NCBI GenBank assembly: GCA_032718475.1
Contig: JAUCBJ010006803.1
Span: forward strand, 824 to 64,823
Direction of reading: 5' to 3'
Source: Nemertoderma westbladi
Lineage: Eukaryota; Animalia; Xenacoelomorpha
Length of the DNA: 64,000 nt
Part shown: in pieces, positions 20,291 through 58,859 of the stretch
How positions within the stretch are numbered: the stretch's first letter is position 1
Layout of the letters: each line of letters starts with the position of its first letter
Program-made: the position numbers and the translations under genes
The notes under the pieces: model-generated
The model's input: the letters and a program-made list of their open reading frames with translations, nothing else
Told to the model about the DNA's origin: nothing
The model's database searches: none

Positions 20291-20620
20291 AGAGACCTTC
20301 GCGCAGCACGTAGCGTACTCCAACATTGTTTAACAAGCTGTTGAAACGTTTAAGAGACCTTCGCGCAGCACGTGGTGTACTGTAACATTGTTAACAAGCT
20401 GTTGAAACGTTTAATAGACCTTCATGCAGCACGTGGGGTACTGAAACAATCTGTTGAAACGATTAAGATACCTTCCTGCCTTCACGCAATATGTGAGATA
20501 CTGAAACAATCTGTTGAAACGTTTGAGATCTTCGCGCAGCATGTGACGTACTGTAACATTGTGTAACAAGTTGTTGAAAAGCTTAAGAGACTTTCGCGCA
20601 GCACGTGGCGTACTCCAAAC
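20280..20620. repeat. Degenerate ~60-bp tandem repeat (CTGTTGAAACGTTTAAGAGACCTTCGCGCAGCACGT...), 5-6 units
   Basis: Directly visible. Confidence 0.85.
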
Positions 20621-20735: not shown

Positions 20736-20861
20736 GATCTAGGGTCTCGCTGCAGCTGTGCTTCTAGCGTACAACTGTGCTGTTTGCTGTACAGGGTACA
20801 GCTCTAGTCATGCCCATATAGCCGTATGAACAGACCCATGTACCTTGTTAGTGTTACAGCA

Positions 20862-21582
20862 TGTAAAAGCTTTTGCGTAATTAACCGGTTATTTTCCCGT
20901 AAAGTACTCTGTACTTAACTTTACTGCTTTTGCTGTCGGTTGTTCATTATATTTGTTGATGAAATATTATATCGGAATACTGATCAATAGTCAGACACCC
21001 CAATCTTCTTGATATACTAAAGGTTAGAGAGACCGGTTACATATAAACGATTGCGTCCTATGTTAAGTGGTTTGAAGTGAATCTAATGCTATTTCATAGG
21101 CCCGACATAAATTGTATGTTGCTCTCTTTATACGTGACTAAATTTAGTGAAGGTCGGCAGATTAGTGTGCAGTATTGTGCAGCATTGTGTATGATTGTAA
21201 CTGATAACAAAGCATCTCCTAAAGAATGCGCCATATACGTGAATCTATAGCCTTTTCGTTGTGTCTAGTTTAAGTCATAACTCTGTTTACATATTTAGAG
21301 CGCCACGTCCTAAAGGAACTGTTAATATTTCCCGAAAGTGAATAATATTTGTCAGAGATTATATATTACGATCAGTCGAATAATACAGTAGGCTTACACC
21401 ATCAATCATTAAGCTTCCAAATTCAGTCTCCCGGGTATATCCAGCGGGTGAATGATTGCGCATAGACTGGCTTCGGCTAATGTAGTGTATCAAATACTCG
21501 TCATAGGCTAAAGACTATATATCATCTAAAAGACATCCTAATTTGGCAGGTTAAACTGTCAAAGGTCTTAAAAGCGCAAACA
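20862..21582 (+). repeat. 5' LTR of copy B (about 480-bp internal deletion)
   Basis: Matches 44927-44978 and about 45460-46123. Confidence 0.93.
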
Positions 21583-21593
21583 ATAACAGATAT
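21583..21593 (+). promoter_or_regulatory. PBS-position 11-mer of copy B (ATAACAGATAT), putative self-priming site
   Basis: Abuts the LTR end; exact reverse complement of LTR-internal ATATCTGTTAT at 45361-45371. Confidence 0.7.
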
Positions 21594-21929
21594 TTGGTTC
21601 TGATTGCGGTGTAGGCAATAAATACAGTTTAATATTGTTTTGGTAAAAACAATAACAGATAGTGCTTCTAGATTGCGGTGTAAGCAATCTAGTCGAAAGT
21701 ACCGGTCGACCGGTAACCAGTAGGCCTGACTGCCTGATCATCCGGACCGGTACCTACAGCAGTACAGGTACAACAGTATTATTCGATTGTGGTATTGTAT
21801 ACCGGTAGGCTGTTTAAGAGATTAGGGACTGTACACCCCTTGTTTCTTTTGGAGCTTACTTATTTCTGTCAGTTTTATTTATTTGTAGGCCAGTATTGAG
21901 CAGAAGGCATGTAAGCCTGCTCAGATTGT

Positions 21930-22500
21930 ACAGATAATTTGTAGGCTTGACTGTTGTCTAACTGTTGTTAAGTCTGAACGGATTGCAGTGTGTGTAGAGC
22001 ATCTGTCCGATAAAGTGCTAGTTAGGAAAGTAGGGGCTTCAAGTGCTGTGAGGTAAACCCCCTGTGAAAGAATAAGTCGTACTACTGGGTTAGAACGCAT
22101 ACTAACTAATCATTTCGGAGTCTGCATATACTGTAGTGTATTTAGGCTTGATAGTAGTCTGCCATCGTTTGGTCTGTACTTTGTTTGTGTAGTCTGTACG
22201 GGTAGCGTATAATTTTATTTAGATAATTTGTAGGCTGGATAGTTGTCTGGCTGTTGTTGGGTTTGAGGAAATTTCGGTGTGTGTAGAGCATCTGTCCGAT
22301 AAAGTGCTAGTTGGGAACGTAGGGGCTTCAAGTGCTGTGAGGTAAACCCCCTGTGAAAGAATAAGTCGTACTACTAGGTTAGAACGCATACTAACTAATC
22401 ATTTCGGAGTCTGCATATACCGTAGTTTGTTTAGGCTTGATAGTAGTCTGTCAGTATTTGGTCTGCATTTTGTTTGAATAGTCTGTACGCGTAGCGTAAT
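21930..22500 (+). repeat. Two ~289-bp direct repeats in leader of copy B (equivalent about 33960-34530 in copy A)
   Basis: ATCTGTCCGATAAAGTGCTAG at 22001 and 22290. Confidence 0.85.
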
Positions 22501-23124
22501 ATTTATTATTCAGAGTTTATGCGATTATTCGCAACATTCATATCCCCAAGTTTATTCCTACAGTAATTGTGTTTGTTATACATACCGTTATAGTTAAACT
22601 AACCCCGGTACTACATCAGGGCTGCTCGGCGTAGGTAAAGACTGGAGATTTTGTGCTTTGGTCACTCCGGCAGATACCGTGGTTCTTTTAACTGTTCAAG
22701 TATTTTTAACTACTAATTATTTGTTGTACAAGTACTTGTACCTAATTTAGGGTTTAGTGTACTGTACTTTCCGAAGGTGATTAGTGTGTAGGCAGTATAT
22801 TTGTGTTGTAAAGTGGTTAATAGGCACGTTGGTTCTGGTAGACCGCGGTAATTAATCTCTAGGTAGGAACACTCCGTGATACATAACGTAGTACCTATAG
22901 CGATACGGTTATAGGTCGTCAGACGGTGGTATTTTCCTATCTGGACAACGCAGTATATTTACTACTACTTATTATTTTCAAATACCGTAGTAACCTGTCC
23001 GTTGTAATAACCAGATATTCTAACCCTTTGTTAGGCTGGTTAGTAGACTTCTTGTAAAATTACCCTAAAAATTCGCATTTGTGTATTTGTAATTAAATTT
23101 TTGTGTTTATTTAGAGATTGTAAT

Positions 23125-24312
23125 TGTTCGCGCTTTCAGACCTTTGGCAGTTTAACCCGCCAAATTAGGATGTCTTCTAGATAATAAATCGCTTTAGCCT
23201 CTAACAAGTATTTGATTCACTACACTAGTTGAAACCAATCTGTGCGCGATCATTCACCCGTTGGATATACCCGGGAGATTGATTTCGACAGCTTAATCGT
23301 ATTGCTATGTAAGCCTAATGTATTATTCGACTGACAGTATTATATAATCTCTGACAATATTATTCACCTTCGGGGAATATTAACAGTTCCTTTAGGACGT
23401 GGCGCTCTATCTATATAAACAGAGTTATGACTTAAACTACTCACAACGATATGGCTTAGTTACAATTCACATATATGGCGCATTCTTTAGGAAATGCTTC
23501 GTTATCAGTCTCACTCATACACAATGCTGCACAATACTGCACACTAATCTGCCGATCTTCACTGATTTTAGTCACATATAAAAGGAACACGGACCGAATC
23601 ATGTAGGGTCTATCAAATAACATTAGATTCACTTCAAACCACTTTAACATAAGTCACAATTGTTATATGTAACCCTTCTCTCTTACCTTCGGTATATCAA
23701 GAATATTGGGTTTCGGGGTTATTTATCGTTATTCCAAATATAATAATTCATCAACCATATTATGAAGAACTGACAGTAAATAGCAGTATAACAATATAAA
23801 GTATGCACAGGTTGTTTGATTAGGTATGGTATGTTATGTTGTGATAAATGCAGATAACGGATATATGTCCTTATAATTAAGCCTACTAGTGTAGGGCTAA
23901 AGCCGTTCTTCCTGGCTTAGAATCACCAACAACACTAAAAACTGATAAGAATAACTATAAGAATACCAGCTACCCTTATTCTACAAAGATCTCACCCACC
24001 ACAGAGAATGAGCATACAGATAGGAAATTCAGTTCAGTAGATCTGTGATAGGTCAAAATCAAAACCAACTCAAATCCTATTGGCAGATACAGAAAGCAGG
24101 GCTATGGGGCAACGTGGCAATATCAGCCGTTAGCCGTCGTCATGGTAGCGACACTGTTTTCAAGAGTATCGAGCTTTTACGTCACGAAATTGAAGATTAT
24201 GTCCTCTAAAGTACAAATACAGAAGAAATGGCTTTTATGTCCTCCAAAACACCAGTACAGCAAGGACACTTTACGGGGATAATAACCGGCTAATTACGCA
24301 AAAGCTTTTACA
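23125..24312 (-). repeat. 3' LTR of copy A
   Basis: Matches 34956-36179 apart from a 36-bp deletion; preceded on the minus strand by PPT-like GGGAGCGG. Confidence 0.95.
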
Positions 24313-24390
24313 CCGCTCCCAGAAAATGGGATTTAAGTCTATAAAATATAACAAATCACAGTTTCTAAAATATAAAGATACTCTAAACAG

Positions 24391-27377: not shown

Positions 27378-30300
27378 TTACGTTATGGAGTCCCTAGATG
27401 TTTGAAGGATTAGGGAGGTGGTCGTGGGAAGAGAATCTTGCCTTCCACAGTTTCCGGAGAGTCCTCCATTCCCTTCCGGTAAACACAAACGACCGACTGG
27501 GTGATTGAGTCGCTGCATCCCGAATACAATTCCAGGTTTCCTCTTCATCCTGGAATAGTGACGATAGAAGCATCGCTCTAAGTACACGACGGCCTTACAA
27601 AGCCGATTCCAGGAGCTATAGTGGTCCGTCGCTCCCTGCAGGAGAGGTGAGAGTCCCTGCGAGACGTCTGATGTTCCAGAGCTCCAATCGCTCTCTCTGA
27701 TCTTCATGAAGGATCCACTCGCGGTGGGGAGGTCCAGATCCACGGCGTCGTCCCTGGCAATATGTAATACCGACAGATCTATCCCGGGTTCAAATAACTC
27801 CGCTCCACCCGTCCGGGTTTTAGGTTTAACTTTCTCCGCTCCCTTGGCTGGTCTAATCTCAGTCGGAGTAAGATGGGGAGGCCATTCATCCTCCTTACTC
27901 AGGAAGTCGGGTTCACCTAACCGGTCTGTAGTATCTGTCAGTTCTTGAGGAGTTGCTCCTCTGGAAGCGATGTCAGTTGGATTAAACTTCTTGGGGCAAT
28001 ATCTCCATTGATCTACATTGGAGCTAATATCGTCATTATCTGAGGAGTATGGTGTTCCCTCAGTTGGGTCGTCTCCCTCACTAGTATCATCTTCCCATTC
28101 ACTCACCTGGCAGACGCGATCTTGAAGCAGTCTTTCTCTGAGCGTTCTACGGGAAGGTCCAGTAAGGTACCAACCTACTCTAGTTCTTACCGCATAGGTC
28201 TGAAGTGGTTGCGGTTGAGTAGGTCGTTTCTCTAATGTCTCCAGCGCCTCATGCGCGTTTTGACCGATTAATATTTGTACTCCAGGATAATCGGTGTCGA
28301 ATCTAGGGATGTTAAGTTGTTGCGCATGATCATCTTCGTCCCAATTATAAGGTTCCACTTGGGTGGTAGCGAAGTTCTTTATTGCCACCATTTTTACTGA
28401 CCTTATACTGTATTCTCCTAGTTTATCCTGTGGAGTGGACAACTCACCTATATAATAGTCGGCAGCTACAGTAGAATTCCAAACCTGCATGATCCCTGAC
28501 ATGTTTAGCTTGGTTCGGAACTTGGGTTGTCCAGCAAAGATGACTTCGGCTAGTTCTTTATCGATGAATGTTCCTGTGCTACCGGAGTCCAGGAGGGCGT
28601 TCACTATATAGCTCTTCTGAGGTCCGTGAACCCGTAACTGGACTACAGGAAATTCTCGGATTCCTATATTGGAAGTTGGCGCTTTCCAAGATGGTTGTTG
28701 ATCTGAAGTAGTTAGGGTGAGGTCGCTGTCTGTGTCTTTCTCATACATGAGTGCTCGATACACTGCGGTGGTGTTTATTAAGTAACAGGATTCGTTTTCG
28801 TCGGAGAACTCGTCCGTATAGAATCCTTCCATCTCAGATTGATCAGTGTCGTTCACATCACTGAATTGGACATGTAGTTCGGACTCACTTACCTGACTCG
28901 GGCTGTTTCGTTCGAATTCCGTGTGCAACAAGATATGATGTTTTGCGCCGCACTTCGCACACCTTGCGTCGGAGTAACAGGTTCGCCGTTGGTGTCCTCG
29001 TCTGAGGCAATTATAACACAACCGCTTATCCCACATGACTTCACGTCTATCCTTTAGTGATTTCCTCAGGAATTTATCACACGCATTTAAACGGTGGGGC
29101 CCGTCGCACAGCACACATTTCGGCTTGATGTTACTTACTTTAACCTGTGCTATGTGGTGCACACTTGTTCTTTCCTCGGGCTTTCTCACCTGAATTCTTT
29201 TAGGAGACGTAGGAAGGGTTTTTTGTACCGGTTCCCTTCTGTCATTGGGTCGAGACTCGGATTTACTTACCTGATCTTTAGGCATTTTATTGACATAATA
29301 AGATCTGTCAGTGTCTTTCCTGCTGTCCTCTCCTTGAGAAGTTTGGCTTTCACCGTCGTCGGTATAACATACTGGTGTTACCCTTCTCCTAGAAACGGGT
29401 TTCTCACTTACCTTGTTTTCCAATGTCTTCTCTCTGGACTGCCTTAGGAGCTGTAATTTCACTTCTCTATCTAAGAATGACATGAGATCAGTCATGGTAG
29501 GGTCTCGTCGTTGTTGTTCCATCATATATAACACCTTCTTGCCCCAGCGTGTACCTACTCCACCCTTGGGCAAAGTAGATGCTAAGGCTCCTACAACCAT
29601 AGAATTCTGGTATTCATGAGACTTACCTAACCAATCTAGTTGTCTACAGATCTCCTGAATCTCATCGGAAAACTCTATAATCCCGCTGCTAAGAAACTTT
29701 CGGGGCGCCATTAATTTCGCATATAAATACCTAGCTATGTTAGTCCTATTACCATACCTGATGTTTAGTGTATCCCAAACTTGTCTTAATCCATCTGGAT
29801 GTCCAATAAATTTTAACGCCATTGACTTGGGAGATCCTTCCAAGCACTCGATGAGGAATCTAAGTTTCTCTCCATTAGATAGCACAGAGTTCTGTATGTT
29901 ATCTTTGTAATATTCATTAAAAGGTAACCATTTCATCTCATCTCCATTGAACTTGACGATCTCTCCCACCTTTACCGCTTGCCGGGCTTCGGTTCTAGCC
30001 ATTTGACGCGTAAAACTTTCTTGAGCCATCGTATTATTGAATATAGAATTATCGGTATATAAATTTCTCGGATTATGATCAGGTCTATAAGGAATATTAT
30101 TATCAACAGGTTTATAATTACCCTGAATAGGGTTTACTATAGGAGTTTCTACTTCACTAGCAGTATGGATGCGTGTAGGCTCCACACCTTGCACATGAAA
30201 TACTTCAGACCTAACGGGTTGACACATTGTTACAGGGGGTGGTGTTATACCCCTTTGTATGTTCACTAATTTATCGCATTCTAACGCGATACTTTGCTGC

Positions 30301-32495
30301 ACCTTTTGCAACTCTAACCTACTTTCCCTTACTGTTCCCTTGAGCTGCTGAACAGTCTCTTCCATTTCCCGGACCTGCTGAGAGGAGCACAAACAGTGTT
30401 CCCTCAGCTGCTCGAGCAGGAGACCCATCTCCCGTCGTCCCTCAGCTACCCACTCAACCGCCGAAGCGGGAGTCGCCAACGTTGTAGCGGGCGAGCGAGA
30501 GACGACGGGCGATAAATTCTTGATACCTCGCTCGGCGTCCAGGACGGGTTCGGACTCGGGAACAATCCTACTGGGCACAGGTAGTTTAGTACTGTGCAAA
30601 GGGAATCTAGAGGTGGTTTCTGGGAGCACAGGTGTCTCTAGCACCGAAGGGGTGTCTTCGAGAACAGGCCTAATTATTTCAGGCTCATCTGTTATAGTAG
30701 GGAGTCTTTCTATTTTAATTATTTGGTCTGTGGGCTCTGTACTACCTAAGTTGGTGTTATTTAGTTGCCTTCTAACAGCTGGAGGCAAATCAGGCAATTT
30801 TTGATGGTGGAATGTTCTTTTACGTCTACTTAGACGAGATCTATTTCCCTTGCCTTCAGTATCGGTGGTATCGCCTTCCTCAGATGATGTGTATCCCTGT
30901 CTTTTGGGAGTAGATCGATTCATCATCTGCATATTACTAGCTGTTAACTGTTTATTTATGCAGTCTTGATTCTCCTGAATGTTTTCCAATTCTAATTGGG
31001 TGGTTTCTTCAGTCGCTCTCCGTTCAGCTTCTGCCACTGCCTCTGTGGCCTTTCTCTCAGCCTCGGCCGCCTTTGCTTCTGCCGCTGCCGCTGCCGCTGC
31101 CGCTGCCGCTGCCGCTGCCGCTTTTGCCTCTGCCGCTGCCGCTGCCGCTTTTGCCTCTGCTGCTGCCTCTGCCGCCTTTGCCTCTGCCGCTGCCTCTGCC
31201 GCCTTTGCCTCTACCGCTGCCGCTTTTGCTTCTGCCGCTGCCGCTGCCGCTTTTGCCTCTGCTGCTGCCTCTGCCGCTGCCGCTTTTCTTTCTGCTTCTG
31301 CAGCTACCACTGCTGCTTTCTTTCTGTCTTCTATACGTTTTTTCTTTACTTGCTCTTCTTGGACTCGTGTGATGCGGAGTTGTTCATCGAATTTAGCCTG
31401 ATTCGCAGCCCTCATTTCCACATCGATGGCATCCAACACAAGCTTGGTTCCTTCACTATTAGGGCTAAGTCCCTCTAACCTTCTCCTCAACTCGTCATCA
31501 CCTAAAAAACGTTGATAGTCCGACAGATAGATGTCAATGGCATCCCTCTTATGCGGTTTCTCTGCCGTCGCTTCACTTTCCACTTGGGAATAAGTAGCGT
31601 CTGTTGATTCTCCATGGGTTGAGTGCTCCTCCAGCTGAGCTTTCCACTGAGCTGTTCCTTGAACCTGGCGACTCACCCGTTGAAACCAAGTTTTTACGGC
31701 AACTTGCAACGACGTGTCTTGTCTTCGTTTAGAAGCCTCCTCAAAGGCCGATAATATTAACCTGATTCGTAGAATTCTTTCTCTTACTTGATAAAGCAGC
31801 TGTCCCTGCTCTTGAGGTCCTTGAGGTTGTTGTAACAGTTGTTTTTCTACTCGCTCCATAGAGCTGAAGAATCCCTGTGCGTATCCGGCTGCGGACCTCT
31901 TCCACACAGCTGGATCGATGGTTTCCTCGGCTACTCCCATCCGGTGTATGTCTTCCCAGGCAGCTTCGGATAAATCAAACGGGAGTCCGGGTCCGGGAAA
32001 GTTCCATTGCGACTCGACCATGGACTTCAGTTCTTCCCTTGTGTATCCAGCATAACTATCTCTAGTTGAACGCTGGCTTCTCGCCCAATCGATCTGGTGT
32101 TCTTCCACAGCGATCAATAACCTAGTGAGTACGGCTGCAGGAAGGATGAGAAGGGGATCTGAATAAGCCTCATCCGTCATCCTTGCTCCGCGTTCGGGTG
32201 TCAGCTCTGCAGTATCTTCACTACTGGAGCTGTTGAGCCGCTGAGAAATAAGTTCTTGGCTCGCGGGTTGTTGCTGTTCCGCTGCTTCTTGGTTCCGCTT
32301 GACCTGAGCTCGAGTGCCTATGACAGACCTACGATGTTGGACCAGCCTAGGTTCTTTTATTACTACTGGAGGGATGACCTTCCTCACAGTGGGAGGTGAA
32401 CTGAACTTACGACCAGACGGTTCTACGTCTCTATCTGAGTCGCAGATAGTTACATCTAATAAACTGTCTGACAGGTTCTGCTTAGTATCAGACAT
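27378..32495 (-). CDS. BEL/Pao Gag-aspartic protease polyprotein, 1705 aa, lacking RT and integrase
   Basis: KFNGD...W..F (DUF1759-like), three Cys/His knuckles, ALLDSGS, TRVGWYLTGP, then RNase H tail QWRYCP..FNPTDIASRG; no YxDD or integrase motifs. Confidence 0.9.
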   Translation of the reverse strand: MSDTKQNLSDSLLDVTICDSDRDVEPSGRKFSSPPTVRKVIPPVVIKEPRLVQHRRSVIGTRAQVKRNQEAAEQQQPASQELISQRLNSSSSEDTAELTPERGARMTDEAYSDPLLILPAAVLTRLLIAVEEHQIDWARSQRSTRDSYAGYTREELKSMVESQWNFPGPGLPFDLSEAAWEDIHRMGVAEETIDPAVWKRSAAGYAQGFFSSMERVEKQLLQQPQGPQEQGQLLYQVRERILRIRLILSAFEEASKRRQDTSLQVAVKTWFQRVSRQVQGTAQWKAQLEEHSTHGESTDATYSQVESEATAEKPHKRDAIDIYLSDYQRFLGDDELRRRLEGLSPNSEGTKLVLDAIDVEMRAANQAKFDEQLRITRVQEEQVKKKRIEDRKKAAVVAAEAERKAAAAEAAAEAKAAAAAAEAKAAAVEAKAAEAAAEAKAAEAAAEAKAAAAAAEAKAAAAAAAAAAAAAAEAKAAEAERKATEAVAEAERRATEETTQLELENIQENQDCINKQLTASNMQMMNRSTPKRQGYTSSEEGDTTDTEGKGNRSRLSRRKRTFHHQKLPDLPPAVRRQLNNTNLGSTEPTDQIIKIERLPTITDEPEIIRPVLEDTPSVLETPVLPETTSRFPLHSTKLPVPSRIVPESEPVLDAERGIKNLSPVVSRSPATTLATPASAVEWVAEGRREMGLLLEQLREHCLCSSQQVREMEETVQQLKGTVRESRLELQKVQQSIALECDKLVNIQRGITPPPVTMCQPVRSEVFHVQGVEPTRIHTASEVETPIVNPIQGNYKPVDNNIPYRPDHNPRNLYTDNSIFNNTMAQESFTRQMARTEARQAVKVGEIVKFNGDEMKWLPFNEYYKDNIQNSVLSNGEKLRFLIECLEGSPKSMALKFIGHPDGLRQVWDTLNIRYGNRTNIARYLYAKLMAPRKFLSSGIIEFSDEIQEICRQLDWLGKSHEYQNSMVVGALASTLPKGGVGTRWGKKVLYMMEQQRRDPTMTDLMSFLDREVKLQLLRQSREKTLENKVSEKPVSRRRVTPVCYTDDGESQTSQGEDSRKDTDRSYYVNKMPKDQVSKSESRPNDRREPVQKTLPTSPKRIQVRKPEERTSVHHIAQVKVSNIKPKCVLCDGPHRLNACDKFLRKSLKDRREVMWDKRLCYNCLRRGHQRRTCYSDARCAKCGAKHHILLHTEFERNSPSQVSESELHVQFSDVNDTDQSEMEGFYTDEFSDENESCYLINTTAVYRALMYEKDTDSDLTLTTSDQQPSWKAPTSNIGIREFPVVQLRVHGPQKSYIVNALLDSGSTGTFIDKELAEVIFAGQPKFRTKLNMSGIMQVWNSTVAADYYIGELSTPQDKLGEYSIRSVKMVAIKNFATTQVEPYNWDEDDHAQQLNIPRFDTDYPGVQILIGQNAHEALETLEKRPTQPQPLQTYAVRTRVGWYLTGPSRRTLRERLLQDRVCQVSEWEDDTSEGDDPTEGTPYSSDNDDISSNVDQWRYCPKKFNPTDIASRGATPQELTDTTDRLGEPDFLSKEDEWPPHLTPTEIRPAKGAEKVKPKTRTGGAELFEPGIDLSVLHIARDDAVDLDLPTASGSFMKIRESDWSSGTSDVSQGLSPLLQGATDHYSSWNRLCKAVVYLERCFYRHYSRMKRKPGIVFGMQRLNHPVGRLCLPEGNGGLSGNCGRQDSLPTTTSLILQTSRDSIT

Positions 32496-32629
32496 GTCTA
32501 CGTATACCGTTGAATGTCTACTGCTGTATTACAGTCTGAGCAAGTCTAGTAACTCAGTATTAACTGCTAGCCTAGTAATTAATTACCGATACTGCTACTC
32601 AGTGTAGTAGGATATATATATAATATATT

Positions 32630-33010: not shown

Positions 33011-34944
33011 AATTATTTTAAATAATTGAATTTCTGAACTTTAGGGTTACTTGGTTACTTTACTTACTTTATTACCGCTATTTGAGCAGTAGTCCAACTG
33101 ATATTGAGACCTAATGGTTGTGTGGTAGGCCTACTATTTATAAATCGTTAGATTTGATTTATAATATATATATACCCGTTTTAATGGGTTTTGTCAATGT
33201 TTGAAATAAATGTTATTATTTCTGGGGAGTAATCACTACACAAAGCGGTGCGCTTTCAGTGAAGTGTTACTTATAGGACACTAAAACAAATAATTCTAAT
33301 TTACCTAAGTTACTTAATACTACAAATTACGTACAAATCGGGTGAGATTACAATCTCTAAATAAACACAAAAAATTTACAAAAAACACAAAATACGAATT
33401 TTCAGGGTAATTTTACAAGAAGTCTACAAACCAGCCTAACAAAGGGTTAGAAATCTGGTTATTACAACGGACAGGGTACTACGGTATTTGAAAATAATAA
33501 GTAGTAGTAAATACACTGCGTTGTCCAGATAGGAAAATACCACCGCCTGACGACCTACAGCCGTATCGCTATAGGTACTACGTTATGTATCACGGAGTGT
33601 TCCTACCTAGAAGTTAATAGAGCTAATCGAACGTGCCTATCAACCACTTTACAACACAAATATAATGCCTACACTAATTACTTTCGGAAAGTACTGTACA
33701 CTAAACCCTAAATTAGGTACAAGTACTTGTATAACAAATAATTAGTAGTTAAAAATACTTGAACAGCTAAAAGAACCACGGCATCTGCTGGAGTGACCGG
33801 TGCACAAAATCACCAGTCTTTACCTACGCCAAGCAGCCCGTGTAGTACCGGGGTTAATTTAACTATAACGGTATGTATAACAAACACAATTACTGTAGGA
33901 ATAAACTTGGGGAATGAATGTTGCGAATAATCGCATAAACTCTGAATAATAGATATTACGCTACGCGTACAAACTACTCAAACAAAATGCAGACCAAATA
34001 CTGACAGACTACCATCAAGCCTAAACAAACTACGGTATATGCAGACTCCGAAATGATTAAGTAGTATGCGTTCTAACCCAGTAGTACGACTTATTCTTTA
34101 GATGGGGGTTTACCTTACAGCGATGGCTGCCCCTACTTCCTAACCGTTCTTTATCGGACAGATGCTTTGCACACACCGAAATTTCCTCAAACCCAACAAC
34201 AGCCAGACAACTATCCAGCCTACAAATTATCTAAATAAAATTATACGCTACCTGTACCGACTACACAAACAAAGTACAGACTAAACGATGGCAGACTACT
34301 CTCAAGCCCAAATAAACTACAGGACATGCAGACTCCGAAATGATTAAGTAGTATGCGTTCTAACCCAGTAGTACGACTTATTCTTTAGATGGGGGTTTAC
34401 CTTACCGCTATGGCTGCCCCTACTTCCTAACCGTTCTTTATCGGACATACACTCTACATGCACTGTAATCCGTTCAGACCTAATCAACAGTTAGCCAACA
34501 GTCAAGCCTACAAATTATCTGTACAATCTGAGCAGGCTTACACGCCCTCTGCTCAATACTGGCCTACAAATAAATAAAACTTGACAGAAACAAGTAAACT
34601 ATACAAAAGAATGAGGGGTGATCAATCCCTATTCCCCTGGCAGCCTACAGTATACAATAGATCACATCGAATAATACTAATGTACTTATACGGGAAGTAC
34701 CGGTTAGGACAGTTAGGCCTACGGACCTACAGAAGTACCGGTTCTGGCAGTTGGACCTACGGGCCTACAGCAGTACCGGTTCTGGCAGTTGGGCCTACTG
34801 ACCTACAGATGTACCGTTCAGGTTTACCGGTTGACCGGTACTTTCAACTTTATTGCTTACTGCAATAAAGAAGCTATATCCGTTATTGTTCTTACCAGAA
34901 CAATATTAAACTGTATTTAATGCCTACACTGCAATACAGACTAA

Positions 34945-34955
34945 ATATCCGTTAT
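34945..34955 (-). promoter_or_regulatory. PBS-position 11-mer of copy A (ATAACGGATAT), putative self-priming site
   Basis: Abuts the LTR end; exact reverse complement of LTR-internal 11-mer at 35685-35695 (and 23854-23864). Confidence 0.7.
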
Positions 34956-36179
34956 TGTTCGCGCTTTCAGACCTTTGGCAGTTTAACCCGCCAAATTAGG
35001 ATGTCTTCTAGATAATAAATCGCTTTAGCCTCTAACAAGTATTTGATTCACTACACTAGTTGAAACCAATCTGTGCGCGATCATTCACCCGTTGGATATA
35101 CCCGGGAGATTGATTTCGACAGCTTAATCGTATTGCTATGTAAGCCTAATGTATTATTCGACTGACAGTATTATATAATCTCTGACAATATTATTCACCT
35201 TCGGGGAATATTAACAGTTCCTTTAGGACGTGGCGCTCTATCTATATAAACAGAGTTATGACTTAAACTACTCACAACGATATGGCTTAGTTACAATTCA
35301 CATATATGGCGCATTCTTTAGGAAATGCTTCGTTATCAGTCTCACTCATACACAATGCTGCACAATACTGCACACTAATCTGCCGATCTTCACTGATTTT
35401 AGTCACATATAAAAGGAACACGGACCGAATCATGTAGGGTCTATCAAATAACATTAGATTCACTTCAAACCACTTTAACATAAGTCACAATTGTTATATG
35501 TAACCCTTCTCTCTTACCTTCGGTATATCAAGAATATTGGGTTTCGGGGTTATTTATCGTTATTCCAAATATAATAATTCATCAACCATATTATGAAGAA
35601 CTGACAGTAAATAGCAGTATAACAATATAAAGTATGCACAGGTTGTTTGATTAGGTATGGTATGTTATGTTGTGATAAATGCAGATAACGGATATATGTC
35701 CTTATAATTAAGCCTACTAGTGTAGGGCTAAAGCCGTTCTTCCTGGCTTAGAATCACCAACAACACTAAAAACTGATAAGAATAACTATAAGAATACCAG
35801 CTACCCTTATTCTACAAAGATCTCACCCACCACAGAGAATGAGCATACAGATAGGAAATTCAGTTCAGTAGATCTGTGATAGGTCAAAATCAAAACCAAC
35901 TCAAATCCTATTGGCAGATACAGAAAGCAGGGCTATGGGGCAACGTGGCAATATCAGCCGTTAGCCGTCGTCATGGTAGCGACACTGTTTTCAAGAGTAT
36001 CGAGCTTTTACGTCACGAAATTGCAGATTATGTCCTCTAAAGTACAAATACAGAAGAAATGGCTTTTATGTCCTCCAAAACACCAGTACAGCAAGGACAC
36101 GGCCTTTTTATGCCTGGTAAACCAACCACAGAGTACTTTACGGGGATAATAACCGGCTAATTACGCAAAAGCTTTTACA
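34956..36179 (-). repeat. 5' LTR of copy A (1224 bp)
   Basis: Direct repeat of 23125-24312. Confidence 0.95.
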
Positions 36180-37024
36180 GTAATCTCAACCTGAATTGTA
36201 CGTAATTTGTAGTATTAAGTAACTTAGGTAAATTAGAATTATTTGTTTTAGTGTCTAACAAGTAGCACTCCACTGAGAGCGCACAGCTTATGTGTAGTGA
36301 CTCCCCCAGAAATAATAACATTTATTTCGAACATTGACAAAACCCATTAAACAGGTATATATATATTATAAATCAACTCAAACGATTTATAAATAGTAGG
36401 CCTGCCATACAACAATTAGGTCTCAATATCAGTTGGACTACTGCTTAAATAACGGTAATAAAGTAAGTTAAAGTAACCAAGTAACCCTTAAAATTCAGAA
36501 ATTCAATTATTCTAAAATAATTGATATACCGGTATTTACAATAGGCTTATTATCTTTATTTCTATAAATTTAGGCTGAAATTATACCGGTATTCTGTAAT
36601 TAATTCTAGTCTGTAATTATACTTATATATATACATTATAAGTGTAAGCTGTATACCGGTATTCACGATAGGCCTATTATATATAAATTTAGGCTGAAAT
36701 CATACCGGTATTCTGTAATTAATTCTAGTCTGTAATTCTACTTACATATATACATTATAAGTGTAAGCTGTATACCGGTATTCACGATAGGCCTATTATA
36801 TATATAAATTTAGGCTGAAATCATACCGGTATTCTGTAATTAATTCTAGTTACTAATAATACTTATATATACTATAAGCATACCGGTATTCTAATATTAT
36901 ATATATATCACGCTATACTGAGTAGCAGTATCGGTAATTAATTACTAGGCTAGCAGTTAATGCTGAATTACTAGACTTGCTTAGACTGTAATATAGCAGT
37001 AGCCATTCAACTGTGTAAACAAAC

Positions 37025-40000
37025 ATGTCTGATACTAAGCAGAACCTGTCAGACAGTTTATTAGATGTAACTATCTGCGACTCAGATAAGGGTGTAGAAC
37101 CGTCTACACCTAAGTTCAGTTCACCTCCCACTGTGAGGAAGGTCATCCCTCCAGTAGTAATAACAGAACCTAGGCTGGTCCAACATCGTAGGTCTATCAT
37201 AGGCACTCGAGCTCAGGTCAAGCGGGACCAAGAAGCAGCGGAACAGCAACAACCCGCGAGCCAAGAACTTATTTCTCAGCGGCCCGACAGCTCCAGTAGT
37301 GAGGATACTGTAGAGCTGACACCCGAGCGCGGAGCAAAGATGACGGATGCGGTTTATTCGGATCCCCTTCTCATCCTGCCTGCAGCCGTACTCACTAGGA
37401 TATTGATCGCGGTGGAAGAACACCAGATCGATTGGGCGAGAAGTCAGCGATCAACTAAAGATAGTTATGCGGGATACACAAGGGAAGAACTGAAGTCTAT
37501 TGTCGAGTCGCAATGGAACTTCCCCGGACCCGGACTCCCGTTTGATTTATCAGAAGCTGCCTGGGAAGACATACACCGGATGGGAGTAACCAAGGAAACC
37601 ATCGATCCAGCTGTGTGGAAGAGGTCCGCAGCCGGATACGCACAGGGATTCTTCAGCTCTATGGAGCGACTAAAAGAACAACTGTTTCAACAACCACAAG
37701 GACCTCAAGAGCAGGGACAACTGCTTTATCAAGTTAGAGAAAGAATTCTGCGAATCAGGCTAATCTTATCGGCCTTTGAAGAGGCTTCTAAAAGAAGACA
37801 AGACACGTCGTTGCAAGTTGCCGTAAAGACTTGGTTTCAGCGGGTGAGTCTCCAGGTTCAAGGAACAGCTCAGTGGAAAGCTCAGCTGGAGGAGCGCTCA
37901 ACCCATGGAGAATCAACAGACGCTACTTTTTCCCAAGTGGAAAGTGAAGCGACGGCAGAGAAACCGCATAAGAGGGATGCCATTGACATCTATCTGTCAG
38001 ACTATCAGCGTTTTTTAGGAGATGAAGAGTTGAGGAGAAGGTTAGATGGACTTAGCCCTAATAGTGAAGGAGCCCAGCGTGTGTTGGACGCAATTGATGT
38101 GGATAGGATAGCTGCGAACCAAGCTAAATTTGATGAAAGTATCCGCATCGCTAAGGTTCAAGAAGAACAAGTAAAGAAAAAACGTATAGAAGATAGAAAG
38201 ACAGCAGCAGCGGCAGTGGCAGCGGCAGAAGCGGAAAGAAAAGCGGCAGAAGTGGATAGAAAAGCGGCAGAGGCAGCGGCAGAGGCAAAAGCGGCAGCGG
38301 CAGAGGCAAAAGCGGCAGCTGCAGCGGCCGAAGCGGAAAGAAAAGCGGCAGCAGCAGAAGCGGAAAGAAAGGCGGCCGAAGCGGAAAGAAAAATAGCAGT
38401 GGCAGAAGCAGAACGGAGGGCATCTGAAGAGACAACCCAACTAGAGTTGGAAAATCTTCAAGAGAGACAAGACAACTTTAATAAACAGTTAACAGCTAGT
38501 AATATGCAGATGATGAATCGATCTACTCCCAAAAGACAAGGTTATACATCATCTGAGGAAGGCGATACCACCGACACTGAAGGCGGAGGAAATCGATCTC
38601 GCCTAAGCAGACGTAAAAGAATGTCCCACCAGTCAGAAATTGCCTGATTTGCCTCCAGCTGTTAGAAGGCAACTAAATAACACCAACTTAGGTAGTACAG
38701 AACCCACAGACCAAATAATTACAATAGAAAGACTCCCTACTATAGTAGATGAGCCTGAAATAATTAGGCCTGTTCTTGAAATCACCCCTTCGGTGATAGA
38801 GACACCTGTGCTCCCTGAACCTACCTCTAAATTCCCTCTGCACAGCACTAAGCTACCTGTGCCCAGTAGAACAGCCCATGAGACAGTTCAGGTCCTGGAC
38901 TCCGAGCGAAATATTCATGATTTGTCGCCCGTTGTCCCTCGTCCGCCCGCTACAACGTTGGCGAATCCCGCTTCGGCGGTCGAATGGGTGGATGAGGGAC
39001 GACGGGGGATGGATCTCCTGCTCGGACAGATGCAGGAGACCGTTCAGCAATTCAAGGGCACAGTAAGGGAAAGTAGGTTAGAGTTGCAAGAAGTGCAGCA
39101 AAGTATCGCGCTAGAACGCGATAAATTAGTAAATACACAAAGGGGTATACCACCACCCCCTGTAACAATGTGTCAACCTGTTAGGTCTGAAGTATCTCAT
39201 GCGCAAGGTGTGGAGCCTACACGCATCTATACTGCTAGCGAAGTAGAAACTCCTATAGTGAACCCTATTAAGGGTAATTATAGACCTGTTGATAATGACA
39301 TTCCCTATAGACCTGATCATAATCCGAGAAATTTATATACCGATAACTCGATATTAAATAACACGATGGCCCAAGAAAGTTTTACGCGCCAAATGGCTAG
39401 AACCGAAGCCCGCCAAGCGGTAAAGGTGGGAGAGATCGTCAAGTTCAATGGAGATGAGATGAAATGGTTACCTTTTAATGAATATTACAAAGATAACATA
39501 CAGAACTCTGTGCTATCTAATGGAGAGAAACTTAGATTCCTCATCGAGTGCTTGGAAGGATCTCCCAAGTTAATGGCGTTAAAGTTTATTGGACATCCAG
39601 ATGGATTAAGACAAGTTTGGGATACACTAAACATCAGGTATGGTAATAGGAATAACATAGCTAGGTATTTGTATGCAAAATTAATGGCGCCCCGAAAGTT
39701 TCTTAGCAGCGGGATTATAGAGTTTTCCGATGAGATTCAGGAGATCTGTAGACAATTAGATTGGCTAGGTAAGTCTCATGAATACCAGAATTCTATGGTT
39801 GTAGGAGCCTTAGCATCTACTTTGCCCAAGGGTGGAGTAGGTACACGCTGGGACAAGAAAGTGTTATATATGATGGAACAACAACAACGAGACTCTACCA
39901 TGGCTGATCTCATGTCCTTCTTAGATAGTGAAGTAAAATTACAGCTCCTAAAGCAGTCCAGAGAGAAGACATCGGAAAACAAGGTAAGTGAGAAACCCGT

Positions 40001-41704
40001 TTCTAGGAGAAGGGTAACACCAGTGTGTTATACTGACGACGGCGAAAGCCAAGTCTTCTCAGGAAGAGGACAGCGGGAAAGACACTGCAAAGATCTTACT
40101 ATGACAATAAAATCCTAAAGGACGTAAGTAAATTCAAGTCTCGAACCAATGACAGGAGAGAACAGGTAAGAAAAACTCCTCCTACGTCTCCTAAGAGAAT
40201 TCATGTAAGAAATCCCGAGGAAAGAACGAACGTGCACCACACAGCACATGTTAAAGTAAGTAACATCAAGCCCAAATGTGTGCTGTGCGACGGGCCCCAC
40301 CGTTTAAATGCGTGTGATGAATTCCTGAGGAAATCACTAAAGGATAGACGTGAAGTCATGTGGGATAAGCGGTTGTGTTATAATTGCCTCAGACGAGGAC
40401 ACCAACGGCGAACCTGTTACTCCGACGCAAGGTGTGCAAAGTGCGGTGCGAAACATCATATCTTGTTGCACACTGAATTCGAGCGAAATAGTCCGAGTCA
40501 GGTGAGTGATTCCGAACTACATGTCCAATTCAGTGATGTGAACGACACTGATCAATCTGAGATGGAAGGATTCTATACGGACGAGTTCTCCGACGAAAAC
40601 GAATCCTGTTACATGATAAATACCGCAGTGTATCGAGCACTCACTTATGAAAAAGATACAGAAAGTGACCTCACTCTAACTACTTCTGATCGACAACCAT
40701 CTTGGAAAGCGCCAACTTCCAATGTAGGGATTAGAGAATTTCCTGTGGTACAGATAAGGGTCCACGGACCAAAAAGGAGTTATGTAGTGAACGCCCTCCT
40801 TGACTCCGGTAGTACAGGAACATTCATCGACAAAGAGCTAGCCGAAGACATATTTGCTGGACAACCCAAGTTCCGAACTAAGCTAAACATGTCAGGAATT
40901 ATGCAGGTTTGGAAATCTACAGTAACAGCGGATTATTATGTAGGTGCGTTGTCCACCCCCCAGGACGAACTAGGAGAACATAGCATAAGGTCAGTGAAAA
41001 TGGTGGCAATAAAGAACTTCGCTACCACCCAAGTGGAACCTTATAACTGGGATGAGGACGATTTCACCCAGCAGTTTGAAATACCTAGATTCAACACCGA
41101 TTACCCTGGAGTCCAAATACTCATCGGTCAAAATGCGCATGAAGCGCTCGAGACATTGGAGAAACGGCCTGCTCAACCGCAACCTCTACAAGTTTATGCG
41201 GGAAGAACTAGAGTAGGTTGGTACTTTACTGGCCCTTCTCGTAGAACTCTTATGGAAAGATTACCAAAAGAACAGGTATATCAATTAAGTGAACGGGAAG
41301 TGGAGAGCAGTGAAGTTTACGACCCAACTGAGGGAACACCATACTCCTCAGATAATGACGACATCAACTCCAATGAAGATCAATGGAGACATTGCCCCGA
41401 GACGATCAATCTAGCCGACATCGCTTCCAGAGGAGCAACTCCTCAAGAACTTACAGATACTCCAAACCGGTTAGGTGGACCCGACTTCCTAAGTAAAGAA
41501 GATGAATGGCCTCCTCAGCTTACCCCGGTGAAGATTAGACAGGCCAAGGGAGCGGAGAAAGTAACACAACCACTCAATCGCCCAGCTGGTCGTTTATGTT
41601 TACCGGAAAGAGACCAAAAACTGTCCGGAAACTATGGAAGGCAAGATACTCTTCCCACGACCACCTCCCTAATCCAACAAATATCTAGGGACTCCATAAC
41701 GTAA
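37025..41704 (+). pseudogene. Frameshifted Gag-protease of copy B
   Basis: Collinear with the 1705-aa ORF of copy A; frameshifts near 38630 and 40050-40115; same missing pol. Confidence 0.9.
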
Positions 41705-43332: not shown

Positions 43333-44860
43333 TATGACTGAATTGATAGAAGATGATCTTGGTATCAGGGAGCGATATACTCTACCTTTACAAGCGTTTG
43401 TCGATAGCTTGATACGCGGCGACGTTGGTCCAACTACTACGGAGGACGATGGTCGTTATATCTAACCGCCAATGTCCCGGGAGCAACTTGCGCGTGGGTT
43501 AGACTGTAGAAAATTCACCGCTCGCTATACGCATCGTAATGGTACGTATATGGACTTCTTAACTACTGGTCATCCTATCGACCTACACGATACGAACGAT
43601 ATAGACACCAAAGGGAAATGGTTTATTTAAATATCATACCCAGCGGAAGCGGAACGATAAACTGAGACTCGAACACGAAAATTCTATTCGAAACCGACTC
43701 GAAAGTGCAGATGTCGAAGAGCCGGATAAACGCAGCGACTCCACCAAATACCTGGAATTCTTGAGAGAAACCTATCTCGATATTACCAGTCAACAGAATC
43801 TAGAAACTCGATATCCTCAAGGTATACCTCATGACCGCATGGTGGAACTCAAACGGCTCTATTCCACTATGATGTATCTTACCGCCGATCGATCGCTACC
43901 TGTTGTACCGGATAGTTTCGAACGGATGGAGGAATATTGTAAGCTGGAGAAAGATCACTCGCATTTCCCCTACAAGACGTGCGTTTTTTGGTATTATTGC
44001 GATGAATGCCCAAGACCCAACCAACGAACGGAAAGACATAAACATCCGCGGAGACATTGCTTTAAACACGGTTTTACTCGCTATATTTACGGGAGTTTCG
44101 AACGAAACTTGTTTGATGTATCACCTACGCTCGTTCGACTCAGACGATCCTTAAATAAACCAATGATCAGAGTTTCGGAATACTCGATCAGACCTCCTCA
44201 TTCCCTAGTGAGACTCTTGATCCTATTAGTATGACGGATCCTCCTGAGCTGTACTCACTGCTCAAAGATCTAGTGTTACCTGAACAATTAGTCGGTGGCA
44301 CCCCGGTTGTGGGCTTCCTAGATATTAGCCCATCCTACCTAGCCGGATTGGGACGCGGACATTTAATATCGCTGTTTAACCCTTACCATCGTCCCGGCTT
44401 AACACGATATAACCTGTCACCAAAGTGGCGGAGAGCGTTGTACCAAATGAGTTAGACGCTATTCTACAAAGATCAGAAAGGGAACTTACGCTTGTTCAGA
44501 TAAACGTAAATTGCACTAGCAAGTCCAAGCGGTAAACAAAGTAACTATATCTCAGTTCGATCGGGAAATCCAGAATCTCTAAGAAGTTATCGAACTTGGA
44601 CGATCCTATTCTCTGCGAGAGTTTTTGGATGAACGTATCCAGCTACGAGCGGAGGAAAATCAGCTCGAGGAGAAGCATATCGAAACGGCAGATACCTCGA
44701 CCATAATCCTACATCTTCTGATGCAATCATATTGCACCCTTCACCCAGGAGTTATGGCCCTCCTAGTAAAGTGGCTCCCCCCAAAGAGAAAAGGACTCTT
44801 GCTAACCTCAAAAAACTGCGTAAACGCCGTCTGCGTAAGAAAGACTAACTGTTTAGAGTA
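43333..44860 (+). pseudogene. Decayed 3' accessory ORF (ORF2) of copy B, unknown function
   Basis: MTELIEDDLGIRERYTL... CVFWYYCDECPRP...HKHPRRHCFKH ... DERIQLRAEENQLEEK, with stops and frameshifts. Confidence 0.6.
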
Positions 44861-44926
44861 TCTTTATATTTTAGAAACTGTGATTTGTTATATTTTATAG
44901 ACTTAAATCCCATTTTCTGGGAGCGG

Positions 44927-46123
44927 TGTAAAAGCTTTTGCGTAATTAACCGGTTATTTTCCCGTAAAGTACTCTGTAGTTGGTTTACCAGGCATAAAAA
45001 GGCCGTGTCCTTACTGTATTGGTGTTTTAGAGGACATAAAAGTCATTTCTTCTGTATGTGTACTTTAGAGGACATAATCCGCAATTTCGTGACGCAATAA
45101 GCTGGATACTCTTGAAAACAGTGTCGCTACCATGACGACGGCTAACAGCTGATATTGCCACGTCGAACATTTCTTTGTTCTTTGTTCTCGCTTTGTATGG
45201 TCGACCAATCAGAGCGTTTTTTGTCTCTGTGATAGGAGGTTGGATACAGAAACTCAGGAATTCAGTGTTATGTTTTTGCCCAGAGCCTAAGAACACCGGC
45301 TTTTGGCACCTCCGTGTTTCAGTCTTTAGCTTAACATTAGTAGGCTTAATTATAGAACGTATATCTGTTATCGAGTTATCTTATCATATCTATCCATAAA
45401 TTACTAATCTTACGAGTTACCGAGTTAACTCACTCACTTAATAATCATTTATACCTTATCTTTACTGCTTTTGCTGTCGGTTGTTCATTATATTTGTTGA
45501 TGAAATATTATATCGGAATACTGATCAATAGTCAGACACCCCAATCTTCTTGATATACTAAAGGTTAGAGAGACCGGTTACATATAAACGATTGCGACCT
45601 ATGTTAAGTGGTTTGAAGTGAATCTAATGCTATTTCATAGGCCCGACATAAATTGTATGTTGCTCTCTTTATACGTGACTAAATTTAGTGAAGGTCGGCA
45701 GATTAGTGTGCAGTATTGTGCAGCATTGTGTATGATTGTAACTGATAACAAAGCATCTCCTAAAGAATGCGCCATATACGTGAATCTATAGCCTTTTCGT
45801 TGTGTCTAGTTTAAGTCATAACTCTGTTTACATATTTAGAGCGCCACGTCCTAAAGGAACTGTTAATATTTCCCGAAAGTGAATAATATTTGTCAGAGAT
45901 TATATATTACGATCAGTCGAATAATACAGTAGGCTTACACCATCAATCATTAAGCTTCCGAATTCAGTCTCCCGGGTATATCCAGCGGGTGAATGATTGC
46001 GCATAGACTGGCTTCGGCTAATGTAGTGTATCAAATACTCGTCATAGGCTAAAGACTATATATCATCTAAAAGACATCCTAATTTGGCAGGTTAAACTGT
46101 CAAAGGTCTTAAAAGCGCAAACA
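44927..46123 (+). repeat. 3' LTR of copy B (1197 bp)
   Basis: TGTAAAAG...GCGCAAACA; preceded by PPT-like GGGAGCGG. Confidence 0.93.
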
Positions 46124-47590
46124 CAGCAGTCATCCTACATAGCATCTCTGCAAACAAAGTCCAATTTTGGAATGTATGAATAAATTTCTGCAAAATCATG
46201 GCAGCATGGTAGGAATAATGAATTTGGCACAAAAAAACATATATTTATTGAAAAATGATAGAATTTATGATGGAAATATATTTGCAGGACTTTAAAATAT
46301 TTTTTTTTTAATTTAGAAAAGTCCAATTTTGGAGTGTATTCCGATTTTGGAATCTACCCTCGCACAAAGTTCCAAAATTTGAATAATTCCAAAATCGCCT
46401 ATAATTATACTATATTACTGTATAATAATAATAAAATCTTCCCACTTTAACATATTAACATTTAACACAGTTTAGTTTAGTTGGTGCCTGGCTGGCTGGG
46501 TCCGACGAATTTGTACAAAAAAATACAAAATAGTAGGGCCTGCAATATAGTACAAAAGAGTACAATAAATTACAAAAGAGTGCAAAAATAGTACAATGGA
46601 GTACAAACGAGTGAGAAACGGTACAAGTGTAGTTCAAATCGTGTAGAGGGGCGCACATGATGTGCAAAATAAAACAATGCATTGTGGCTGTGTGGGGCGA
46701 GCCACGCATTGAGCGGGGCGCTAATCTAGCAGTCAGAAAGTATGACAATAATACAATCTTTTGAGTTTAATGCCGCTTTTTGTGTTCGAAAAACACATAA
46801 ACTGTCCCAAGCTGCAAGCTGCCAAGCATGCAGAATTGCAGAAGGCAGGAGAACTCAATAAAATTGCTAGATAGAATAGAGAGAGGCATACATTACATTA
46901 CATACCGACTATACCGTACATAGCCTACATAACGTACCGGTAGTCTATACGTAGCATACTGCATCCTACATACTGCTGTACTGGCATACAGTCTATCCTT
47001 CAGTATATTGGCTACTTTAAGACTATGACAGTATGACGTAAATTTCTGATTTTTGAGTCTCAGTTATACGAGTTTATATTTACCCACTGCATAGTACTGT
47101 AGTATCAGAGTATGTACCATATTGCATTATATTGTAGTATACGAACAGTAGCCTACTAACTTTTACTGTATGCCAGTCAAAATCCACATATGAATCAAAG
47201 TTCTATCAATCATTTCATACTTGACCAATGCCGCTATTCAGCTATTGACACTGTACAGCTGTAGCGGCGCATATTTCTGTATTTCGGCGCCGTTGCATTT
47301 GCTTACAATTAATTATATTTGTATAAAAGTGAAGTGCATGTAGTGTATACTGGTATAACTGTATACTACACCTGTACACTTATTATAGGAAGGCATGAAG
47401 GGATCTAGGCTGCTAGGGGTCTTCTTAACCTCGAATGATAAGTTTATTTTACCGAAAATAACTTATCTTTTATTGGCGCAATTGTAGGACTAATCCCATC
47501 ACATGCGTACTTTTTAACCGGGCTGCCGGGTAATGTACAAATTTAGGAATCGCGTAATTTTCTTAAAATTAATATCTCATATCTCTCCAA

Positions 47591-47705: not shown

Positions 47706-48353
47706 AGATTCTTGAGATATGGAGTATTAACTTCAAACTGTCAAAGCCAGCTGCCATTATCAGATTATATTAGCCCCTGACAGCCTGATTTTTGATTATT
47801 GATAGTAACAATGTGTTGGCAAGCTGCAGAGCTGTAGTTTTCGAGGTGTTTGTTATTATACATTTATAATGTATATAATACATCTTAATATATAATGCAG
47901 CTTGCCAACACATTGTATACTACACTGGTATACAATACACGTTTTGTATGCGTTTCTCGCTAGTTTGTACTATTTTTGCACTCTTTTGTACTATTTTTCA
48001 CTTTATTGTACTCTTTGGTAGGCCTACTCTTTCTGTCTTTTGTACTATATCTGTATACAGGTATAGGCCTTTTGTACTATTTTGTCAGTCGTCGTCGGAC
48101 CGGGCTGGCTGGAGGGACAAACTACAAACACGACATTCTCTAAAAGATTTCCGGTTGAAAAATCTGACCACCTACAAACTGCAGAACTGAATTTAATTAT
48201 TTATTTTAGGCCTATTAAATGTATTTATTAGGCCTATCCTGCTATCTGATTATTTTATTTAGTAATTATGCCTACTGAATTGAATTAGGCTCAGAAGAGT
48301 CAGAGAGTACCTACTGGAGTATAACTATTCTGCTATTGAATAATTAAATTAGT

Positions 48354-52181: not shown

Positions 52182-52361
52182 GTGCGACTACTTTATCGGT
52201 CTCCTAGGGGAGCGCTATGGGTGGGTACCTGACCCGTCTGCAATACCTAAAGAACCCCAGTTCGATTGGTTGAATGAGTGCCGTTCCGATATCAGTATAA
52301 CTGACATGGAAATGCGTCAAGGATTGAAAAAAAACCCTGGAAAATCCTTATATTATCTGAG
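52182..52361 (+). CDS. TEP1: TEP1 exon 2 (DUF4062: CDYFIGLLGERYGWVP...SITDMEM)
   Basis: CAG| acceptor, |GT donor, phase-compatible, conserved motif. Confidence 0.85.
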
Positions 52362-52813: not shown

Positions 52814-53010
52814 GGATAAACTGAAAGTACTTAAAGTCCTGCCGCAGAAGTGGGTCTCGGTATTCTTTCCTGACTCCCCTGGCCAGGTCCTCCGGTTGGA
52901 TGAACTTAAACAACTCGTAAAGGAGTCGAGGAAATACTTACCTGGTTACCATAGCAACTGGGTAGGAGAGATTAATGGGAAACCGGTGCTCGGTGGAATC
53001 CACCAGCTAG
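52814..53010 (+). CDS. TEP1: TEP1 exon 3 (...Y...W.G...GKPVLGG)
   Basis: TTTAG| acceptor, |GTGAGT donor, in phase with exon 2. Confidence 0.8.
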
Positions 53011-58855: not shown

Positions 58856-58859
58856 AACC

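Follow-up and report, generated by a model that had tools for sequence, protein, structure and literature searches.

Results

Two nested copies of one LTR retrotransposon family

The region analysed, referred to below as the window, is a 64-kb stretch of animal DNA from Nemertoderma westbladi. Comparison of the window with itself revealed one LTR family in two copies, A and B, with A inserted within the leader of B and in the orientation opposite to it. A and B are copies from one family, not separate origins. The LTR ends of both are fixed by 5-bp TSDs, and their main parts are the following:

36179 to 23125, minus strand: element A, whole, with TSD ATTAC
36180..36184 (left copy) and 23124-23120 (right copy), minus strand: TSD ATTAC of A, 5 bp
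34956..36179, minus strand: 5' LTR of A, 1224 nt, TGT...ACA
23125..24312, minus strand: 3' LTR of A, 1188 nt, differing from the 5' LTR by a 36-nt deletion and one substitution
24313..24322, minus strand: polypurine tract (PPT) of A, identical in B (44917-44926)
20862 to 46123, plus strand: element B, whole, with TSD CAGCA
20857-20861 and 46124-46128: TSD CAGCA of B, 5 bp
20862..21582, plus strand: 5' LTR of B, 721 nt, internally deleted, with the island and the 11-mer described below gone
44927..46123, plus strand: 3' LTR of B, 1197 nt

The LTRs of A differ by 1 substitution in 1188 nt in addition to the 36-nt deletion, and those of B by 4 differences in 724 aligned nt in addition to the large deletion in the 5' LTR. 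The small number of differences between each copy's own LTRs indicates that both copies are young insertions. Compared with each other, A and B are about 90% similar in their internal parts and 79% in their LTRs. The leader, 2.4 kb in both copies, contains a tandem duplication of 287-289 nt (33957-34520 in A; 21932-22514 in B), and repeats of about 119 nt lie immediately ahead of gag in both.

Outside the two elements, the window contains a TROVE/TEP1-like gene (48348-53045, plus strand) with a first exon of 3 kb. A 23-nt duplication in this gene, at 52150-52195, repeats a splice acceptor; the second copy alone keeps the frame. Two ORFs are intronless, namely Serinc (60586-61941, minus strand), with no relative above 45% identity among the matches listed, and a LETM1-like ORF (7253-8632, plus strand), and the host genes in the window look intron-poor. 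Other repeats comprise Helitron-like Rep/PIF1 helicase remnants (11391-17232), a MULE transposase piece (9228-9881), an OTU-like piece (19236-20390) and a satellite array with a 41-nt unit in more than 50 copies (53600-55100 and beyond), which is adjoined by a repeat of about 570 nt with an inverted copy at 12193-12761. Short ORFs at 57532-58857 (plus strand) resemble, by eye only, a degraded non-LTR reverse transcriptase.

The encoded proteins are of BEL/Pao type

The protein-coding regions on which the assignment is based are:

27378..32528, minus strand: Gag-protease ORF of A, 1716 codons stop to stop, with DUF1759, a triple zinc knuckle, a DSG protease and a short RNase H C-terminal remnant
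37019..41704, plus strand: Gag-protease region of B, split into three ORF pieces

DUF1759 (PF03564) was matched by its profile in both copies with an E-value of 1e-12, and three Cys/His zinc knuckles and the DSG protease motif are readable in the translation of A. The six homologues of A's ORF are all BEL/Pao polyproteins, and PF05380 is present in each of them. The elements thus have the BEL/Pao combination of a DUF1759 Gag with zinc knuckles and an aspartic protease, together with TG...CA LTRs, a PPT and a TSD; they lack the RT-RNase H-integrase order and the 18-nt PBS for tRNA-Arg or tRNA-Gly. They also lack the Ty3/gypsy chromovirus proteins of the Tf1/sushi lineage, since their proteins are of BEL/Pao type. 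In a tblastn search with two full BEL/Pao polyproteins, only Gag-protease and a C-terminal piece of RNase H (45-50 aa) were matched, RT and integrase being absent. Because nothing but these two parts aligns to the full polyproteins, the family is, judged by its coding content, a non-autonomous BEL/Pao derivative, for which RT, RNase H and integrase would have to be supplied in trans by a helper.

The N-terminal extension of Gag is unusually long (~850 aa) and includes an alanine/glutamate/lysine repeat of variable length (30994-31338; 38204-38413). Both copies also have a broken sense ORF region ahead of the 3' LTR (25722-24391, minus strand; 43335-44848, plus strand), which ends in the basic stretch KLRKRRLRKK and of which a 209-aa piece had no match in Pfam or in the atlas.

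The 11 nt after the 5' LTR are complementary to the LTR

The first-pass annotation of this DNA had stated that no TGG-type tRNA site lies next to the LTR end and that the 11 nt immediately following the 5' LTR match, as an exact reverse complement, an 11-mer inside the LTR. Both statements hold in two of two copies, with sequences and coordinates as claimed:

34945..34955, minus strand: PBS position of A, 11 nt, complement of the LTR 11-mer
35685..35695, minus strand: candidate self-primer of A, LTR 485-495, with its 3' LTR copy at 23864-23854
21583..21593, plus strand: PBS position of B, 11 nt
45361..45371, plus strand: candidate self-primer of B, LTR 435-445, in the 3' LTR only
34875..34886, minus strand: second PBS-like copy of A in a 69-nt leader repeat (B: 21652-21661)

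The complement is exactly 11 nt long in each copy and starts at the first base past the LTR's CA. When partners were swapped, the pairing was short (5 nt for the PBS of A with the LTR of B, 6 nt for the PBS of B with the LTR of A). The pair proposed for B stands for the 11-mer of its 3' LTR, but the 11-mer of its 5' LTR was removed by a deletion that spans about LTR 56-528, and the partner is known from the 3' LTR alone. A TGG at leader +59 was rejected as a tRNA site: it differs between the copies, is distant from the LTR and sits in a hairpin.

Among 38,500 positions outside the elements, 24 had an 11-nt complement in the LTR of A and 10 in that of B; Markov estimates of chance were 0.7-4e-3, and the overall chance is about 1e-3 per element. 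In a comparison of 5,417 variable internal 11-mers with 720 variable LTR 11-mers, compensated complements were found at the PBS only, and the three control orientations (direct, complement-only and reverse-only) gave none. The claim that the one difference between the copies is compensated was confirmed, but its weight is modest: the change is an ordinary transition, and CG in A corresponds to CA in B at 28 of 443 sites, so that compensation taken alone would be expected by chance in about 6% of cases. CpG decay was rejected as its source, because transitions affected 149 of 1056 positions at CpG and 565 of 3810 elsewhere, i.e. no hypermutability was seen. The second PBS-like copy, 69 nt downstream, shows the same G/A difference as the first, a co-variation explicable by conversion between the repeats or by a shared primer with which both pair.

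Two related copies and a single change of this kind are what might be seen if the match were due to chance or left over from an old inversion, and a parallel transition had happened by coincidence. This explanation is very improbable in view of the placement of the 11 nt flush with the LTR end, and of the retention of the 11-mer within an island whose two flanks were replaced, in an element without any other primer site.

The 11-mer lies in an island conserved across family variants

Of seven sequencing runs listed, six contain part of the window, and none is recorded as RNA; one of them, X1, may be the source of the window itself. Variants of the family were read from the contigs of four runs, which are probably all DNA and which show presence, not absence. 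They draw attention to one part of the LTR:

35679..35733, minus strand: conserved island, LTR 447-501, ~55 nt, holding TAATTATA, a candidate AG acceptor and the 11-mer (B equivalent: 45324-45372)

The island is flanked by two hypervariable spacers. In all four runs, contigs concentrate on 35679-35732 and depart from the reference on both sides, the loose ends falling at 35732 and 35679. In run X1 the summed depth, which is not a copy number, was 442-499 thousand on the island and 21-39 thousand in most flanking bins, and one contig contains matches to LTR 119-237 and to the island, separated by 159 unrelated letters. The contig pile-up and the bridging contig show that family variants retain the island with the 11-mer while the sequence on either side of it is exchanged. 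Among the variants listed for these runs, none falls at the PBS centre or in the island. Contig joints in three of the four runs, with skips of 69-74 nt, correspond to leaders with one repeat unit fewer. A hairpin within the island was rejected (folding z -0.2 and -0.5).

Exact LTR patterns had no locus in metagenome, GTDB or viral contigs. Protein-based scans of the same three contig collections yielded 0, 1, 2, 0 and 0 loci, none of them a family member; these three loci are distant and lack paired LTRs. In one locus with a distant BEL/Pao gag (L002), positions 61-198, upstream of gag, hold the intron-like pair GTAAGT...TTTCTCAG; no complement to a PBS was found there.

Predicted RNA structure around the PBS

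Evidence of covariation for RNA structure comes from the comparison of two copies, A and B. The elements of predicted structure are:

34974..34995, minus strand: U5 hairpin, 8 bp (B: 21542-21563), kept by two one-sided changes
34848..34944, minus strand: structured leader with three hairpins, folding z -3.6 (A) and -2.4 (B)
34929..34935, minus strand: leader 7-mer, positions 21-27 (B: 21603-21609), which doubles as the 5' arm of a local hairpin
36020..36026, minus strand: LTR 7-mer, LTR 154-160, complement of leader 21-27 (B: 45079-45085), compensated between A and B

The folding z of the U5 hairpin was -1.3 in A and -2.5 in B, and two of the leader hairpins contain one and two compensated pairs, respectively. 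For leader 51-58 two partners are available, the LTR end and the second repeat, and both pairings are compensated, which suggests that the two alternatives form a switch. A U5-leader duplex like that of Tf1 is ambiguous in the predicted structure: a 9-bp U5/leader helix that is invariant and an 8-bp LTR-end/leader helix that is compensated can be drawn, both in competition with local hairpins. The leader 7-mer begins at position 21 in four of four leader units. Compensated 7-bp helices occur elsewhere as well, five in 10.6 kb as compared with 2-4 per control, i.e. ~0.01-0.02 per 30-nt window, and the present one was found post hoc. As a separate observation, the sole substitution between the LTRs of A, at LTR position 156 (3' LTR, 24312-23125), lies within the LTR 7-mer complementary to leader 21-27.

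A leader made of a set of alternative helices, with 51-58 as the compensated example, is compatible with a purely structural role of the 11-nt pairing, in which the pairing would be real and would serve packaging, dimerisation or a switch that hides the PBS, and a host RNA, e.g. a tRNA half, would prime. Priming by half-tRNAs exists in copia elements (PMC6317226), and the window, which has no tRNA gene and no Rfam match, offers no tRNA for comparison with the PBS. However, a host primer should keep the PBS constant, whereas the PBS is not the same in A and B and varies together with the LTR; furthermore, no TGG follows the LTR end, and the one at leader +59 is variable and enclosed in a hairpin. 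We regard this explanation as unlikely.

Transcription start and a possible intron in the LTR

The first-pass annotation had cautioned that the conserved TAATTATA, situated only a few nucleotides upstream of the 11-mer, leaves the transcription start unproven. A TATA-like core is indeed found just ahead of the 11-mer, but instead of a TATA box it may represent a 3' splice site, as a GT-AG intron ending there would put both helices in register. The features concerned are:

36064..36070, minus strand: CATAAAA box at LTR 110, with a second at LTR 68; candidate TATA box for a putative start near LTR 140
35701..36016, minus strand: hypothetical GT-AG intron, 316 nt, LTR 164-479 (B equivalent: 45089-45355, 267 nt)

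If TAATTATA were a TATA box, transcription would start just past the 11-mer, which would then be present only in the 3' LTR copy of the RNA, and its pairing would circularise the genome or allow priming from the 3' end or from a partner RNA. The core lies about 10 nt ahead of the 11-mer, no TATA-like box was found 25-30 nt ahead of it (no consensus box at -30), and neither LTR has an AATAAA or ATTAAA by which the RNA 3' end could be placed, all of which would suit such a start. In contrast, the boxes TATAAG and TATAGA are weak, transcription would be predicted to begin in a hypervariable spacer, and cutting there would presumably remove the 3' R required for strand transfer. This arrangement is therefore considered rather unlikely.

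In both copies an AG is located five bases ahead of the 11-mer. A donor GT at LTR 164 would join the 7-bp helix to the 11-mer through a symmetric 3x3 loop; it is the best among the 17 GTs common to A and B, and the only shared one that gives a helix of at least 6 bp in four of four leader units. With this donor, matched leader/LTR pairings were better than swapped ones by 11 kcal/mol summed. The box at LTR 110 is ~30 nt ahead of the putative short first exon, and the variants listed in LTR 154-163 are four C/T changes, none of them at the donor bases. Two host introns, predicted from frame continuity alone, have similarly weak donors. A donor at LTR 58 was rejected: it gave similar energy, but with G-U pairs and without copy specificity.

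Several observations speak against splicing. Scored singly, the LTR 164 donor ranks second of 33 GTs in A and third of 30 in B; of 211 cut sites, the top-scoring one lies a single base away from this donor and is not a GT, and finding a GT within such a narrow stretch is no rare event. In the leader, ATTGC already belongs to a local hairpin as one of its arms. The acceptor of A is AAG, without a branch-like motif, although B has one 21 nt upstream (LTR 405), and the CATAAAA box at LTR 110 is altered in the main contig of run X5. In addition, since the intron is kept in both LTRs, splicing would have to be confined to the 5' copy. No joint across the predicted intron was found in the four contig sets, which are probably all DNA and in which only presence is informative.

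Discussion

To our knowledge, Tf1, of the gypsy group, is the only element with proven self-priming; for some gypsy and copia lineages it has been predicted. The first-pass annotation had inferred a mechanism of this kind for the present family. The lack of a TGG-type site, the complement flush with the LTR, the island conserved across the family and the U5 hairpin make self-priming the best reading of the sequence features, but the mechanism itself stays a prediction from sequence. Weighed against a basis of only two copies from a single family and a single informative change, these features lead us to consider it probable that minus-strand synthesis is primed by the element's own RNA in a Tf1-like manner.

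By analogy with Tf1, the LTR 11-mer in the RNA would pair with the 11 nt after the 5' LTR, the RNase H of the helper element would cut just past the 11-mer, and the freed 3' end would prime synthesis into U5. If the primer were copied back into the PBS during plus-strand synthesis, a change in the LTR would be transferred to the PBS, and a compensated change could have passed from a C-G pair through a tolerated G-U wobble to U-A.

Self-priming could take three forms. In one, a real possibility though short of a probable one, transcription starts near LTR 140 and the GT-AG intron of LTR 164-479 is spliced out, so that the duplex would reach leader position 27. The first exon, short and capped, would be joined over the ~300-nt LTR intron to the 11-mer, the resulting duplex of ~26 nt with the leader would be cut by RNase H, and only RNA spliced in its 5' LTR would be reverse transcribed, the unspliced 3' LTR passing the intron on. 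A start at or just ahead of the 11-mer, in the style of Tf1, is also possible and is put forward tentatively. An upstream start with no splicing seems doubtful. A start mapped downstream of the 11-mer, which the first-pass annotation had regarded as refuting self-priming, would be insufficient for this on its own, because in wild-type Tf2 most transcription begins downstream of the self-primer (PMC5341516).

For Tf1, the literature describes an 11-mer that pairs with the PBS, RNase H cleavage after it and priming by the freed 3' end into U5 (PMC7175516), a three-duplex priming structure (bioRxiv 2022.12.06.519325), a PBS copy at the 3' end of about half of the cDNA and a PBS whose first five bases are ATAAC (PMC11042837). 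The U5 hairpin and the structured leader of A and B are features that a structure with three duplexes would require. The PBS of A and B shares with that of Tf1 both its length of 11 and the initial ATAAC; with two systems only, one cannot tell convergence from chance. Like Tf1 and Tf2 of Schizosaccharomyces pombe, Tj1, Tosmo and the Tf1/sushi and Tcn1 groups, which are Ty3/gypsy chromoviruses, A and B have no tRNA site, an 11-nt PBS directly after the LTR that complements the LTR, and a U5 hairpin. Unlike them, they are non-autonomous and have BEL/Pao Gag and protease; their LTR is 1.2 kb long, with 729 nt from the 11-mer to the PBS, and the 11-mer is only putatively the 5' end of the RNA; and they have a duplicated PBS unit, a possible second helix and a possible LTR intron.

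Belpaoviridae are primed by tRNA, with an 18-nt PBS for tRNA-Arg or tRNA-Gly (ICTV profile, PMC8742986). Members of this family (Semotivirus) share with A and B the DUF1759, the triple zinc knuckle, the protease, the RNase H represented here by a remnant, TGT...ACA LTRs and a 5-bp TSD, whereas A and B lack the 18-nt tRNA PBS, RT and integrase. Self-priming has been attributed to the Tf1/sushi, Tcn1 and copia TAR lineages (PMC6317226, PMC4600332, bioRxiv 2022.12.06.519325). The TAR lineage of Ty1/copia (Houba, Osr-1) resembles A and B in that self-priming was predicted, outside gypsy, from PBS/LTR complementarity; it differs in being plant copia and sets a precedent for the mechanism in another superfamily by prediction only (PMC6317226). 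An independent origin of self-priming in the present family, as proposed in the first-pass annotation, would follow from the family assignment.

The annotation also knew of no report of self-priming in BEL/Pao, and none was found in the literature searched here, which comprised listings and the starts of abstracts. The BEL/Pao survey PMC3118150 does not mention primer, PBS or tRNA, and no discussion of priming was found in the Sinbad paper (PMC554778). Passages from PMC13524379, PMC4558846, PMC6934838, PMC8220671 and PMC3286476 contributed nothing on this question. Within the same listings and abstract starts, no paper on a primer made by splicing was found, and an earlier mention is possible.

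Were the primer extended by splicing, reverse transcription would be gated by the RNA processing of the host, an arrangement for which no description was encountered in that literature. A self-primed BEL/Pao family, if true, would place the mechanism in a third superfamily and would mean that a BEL/Pao RNase H is able to cut an RNA-RNA duplex. Such an element would be freed from control through tRNA fragments, and self-priming would explain BEL/Pao elements that have been annotated as having no PBS.
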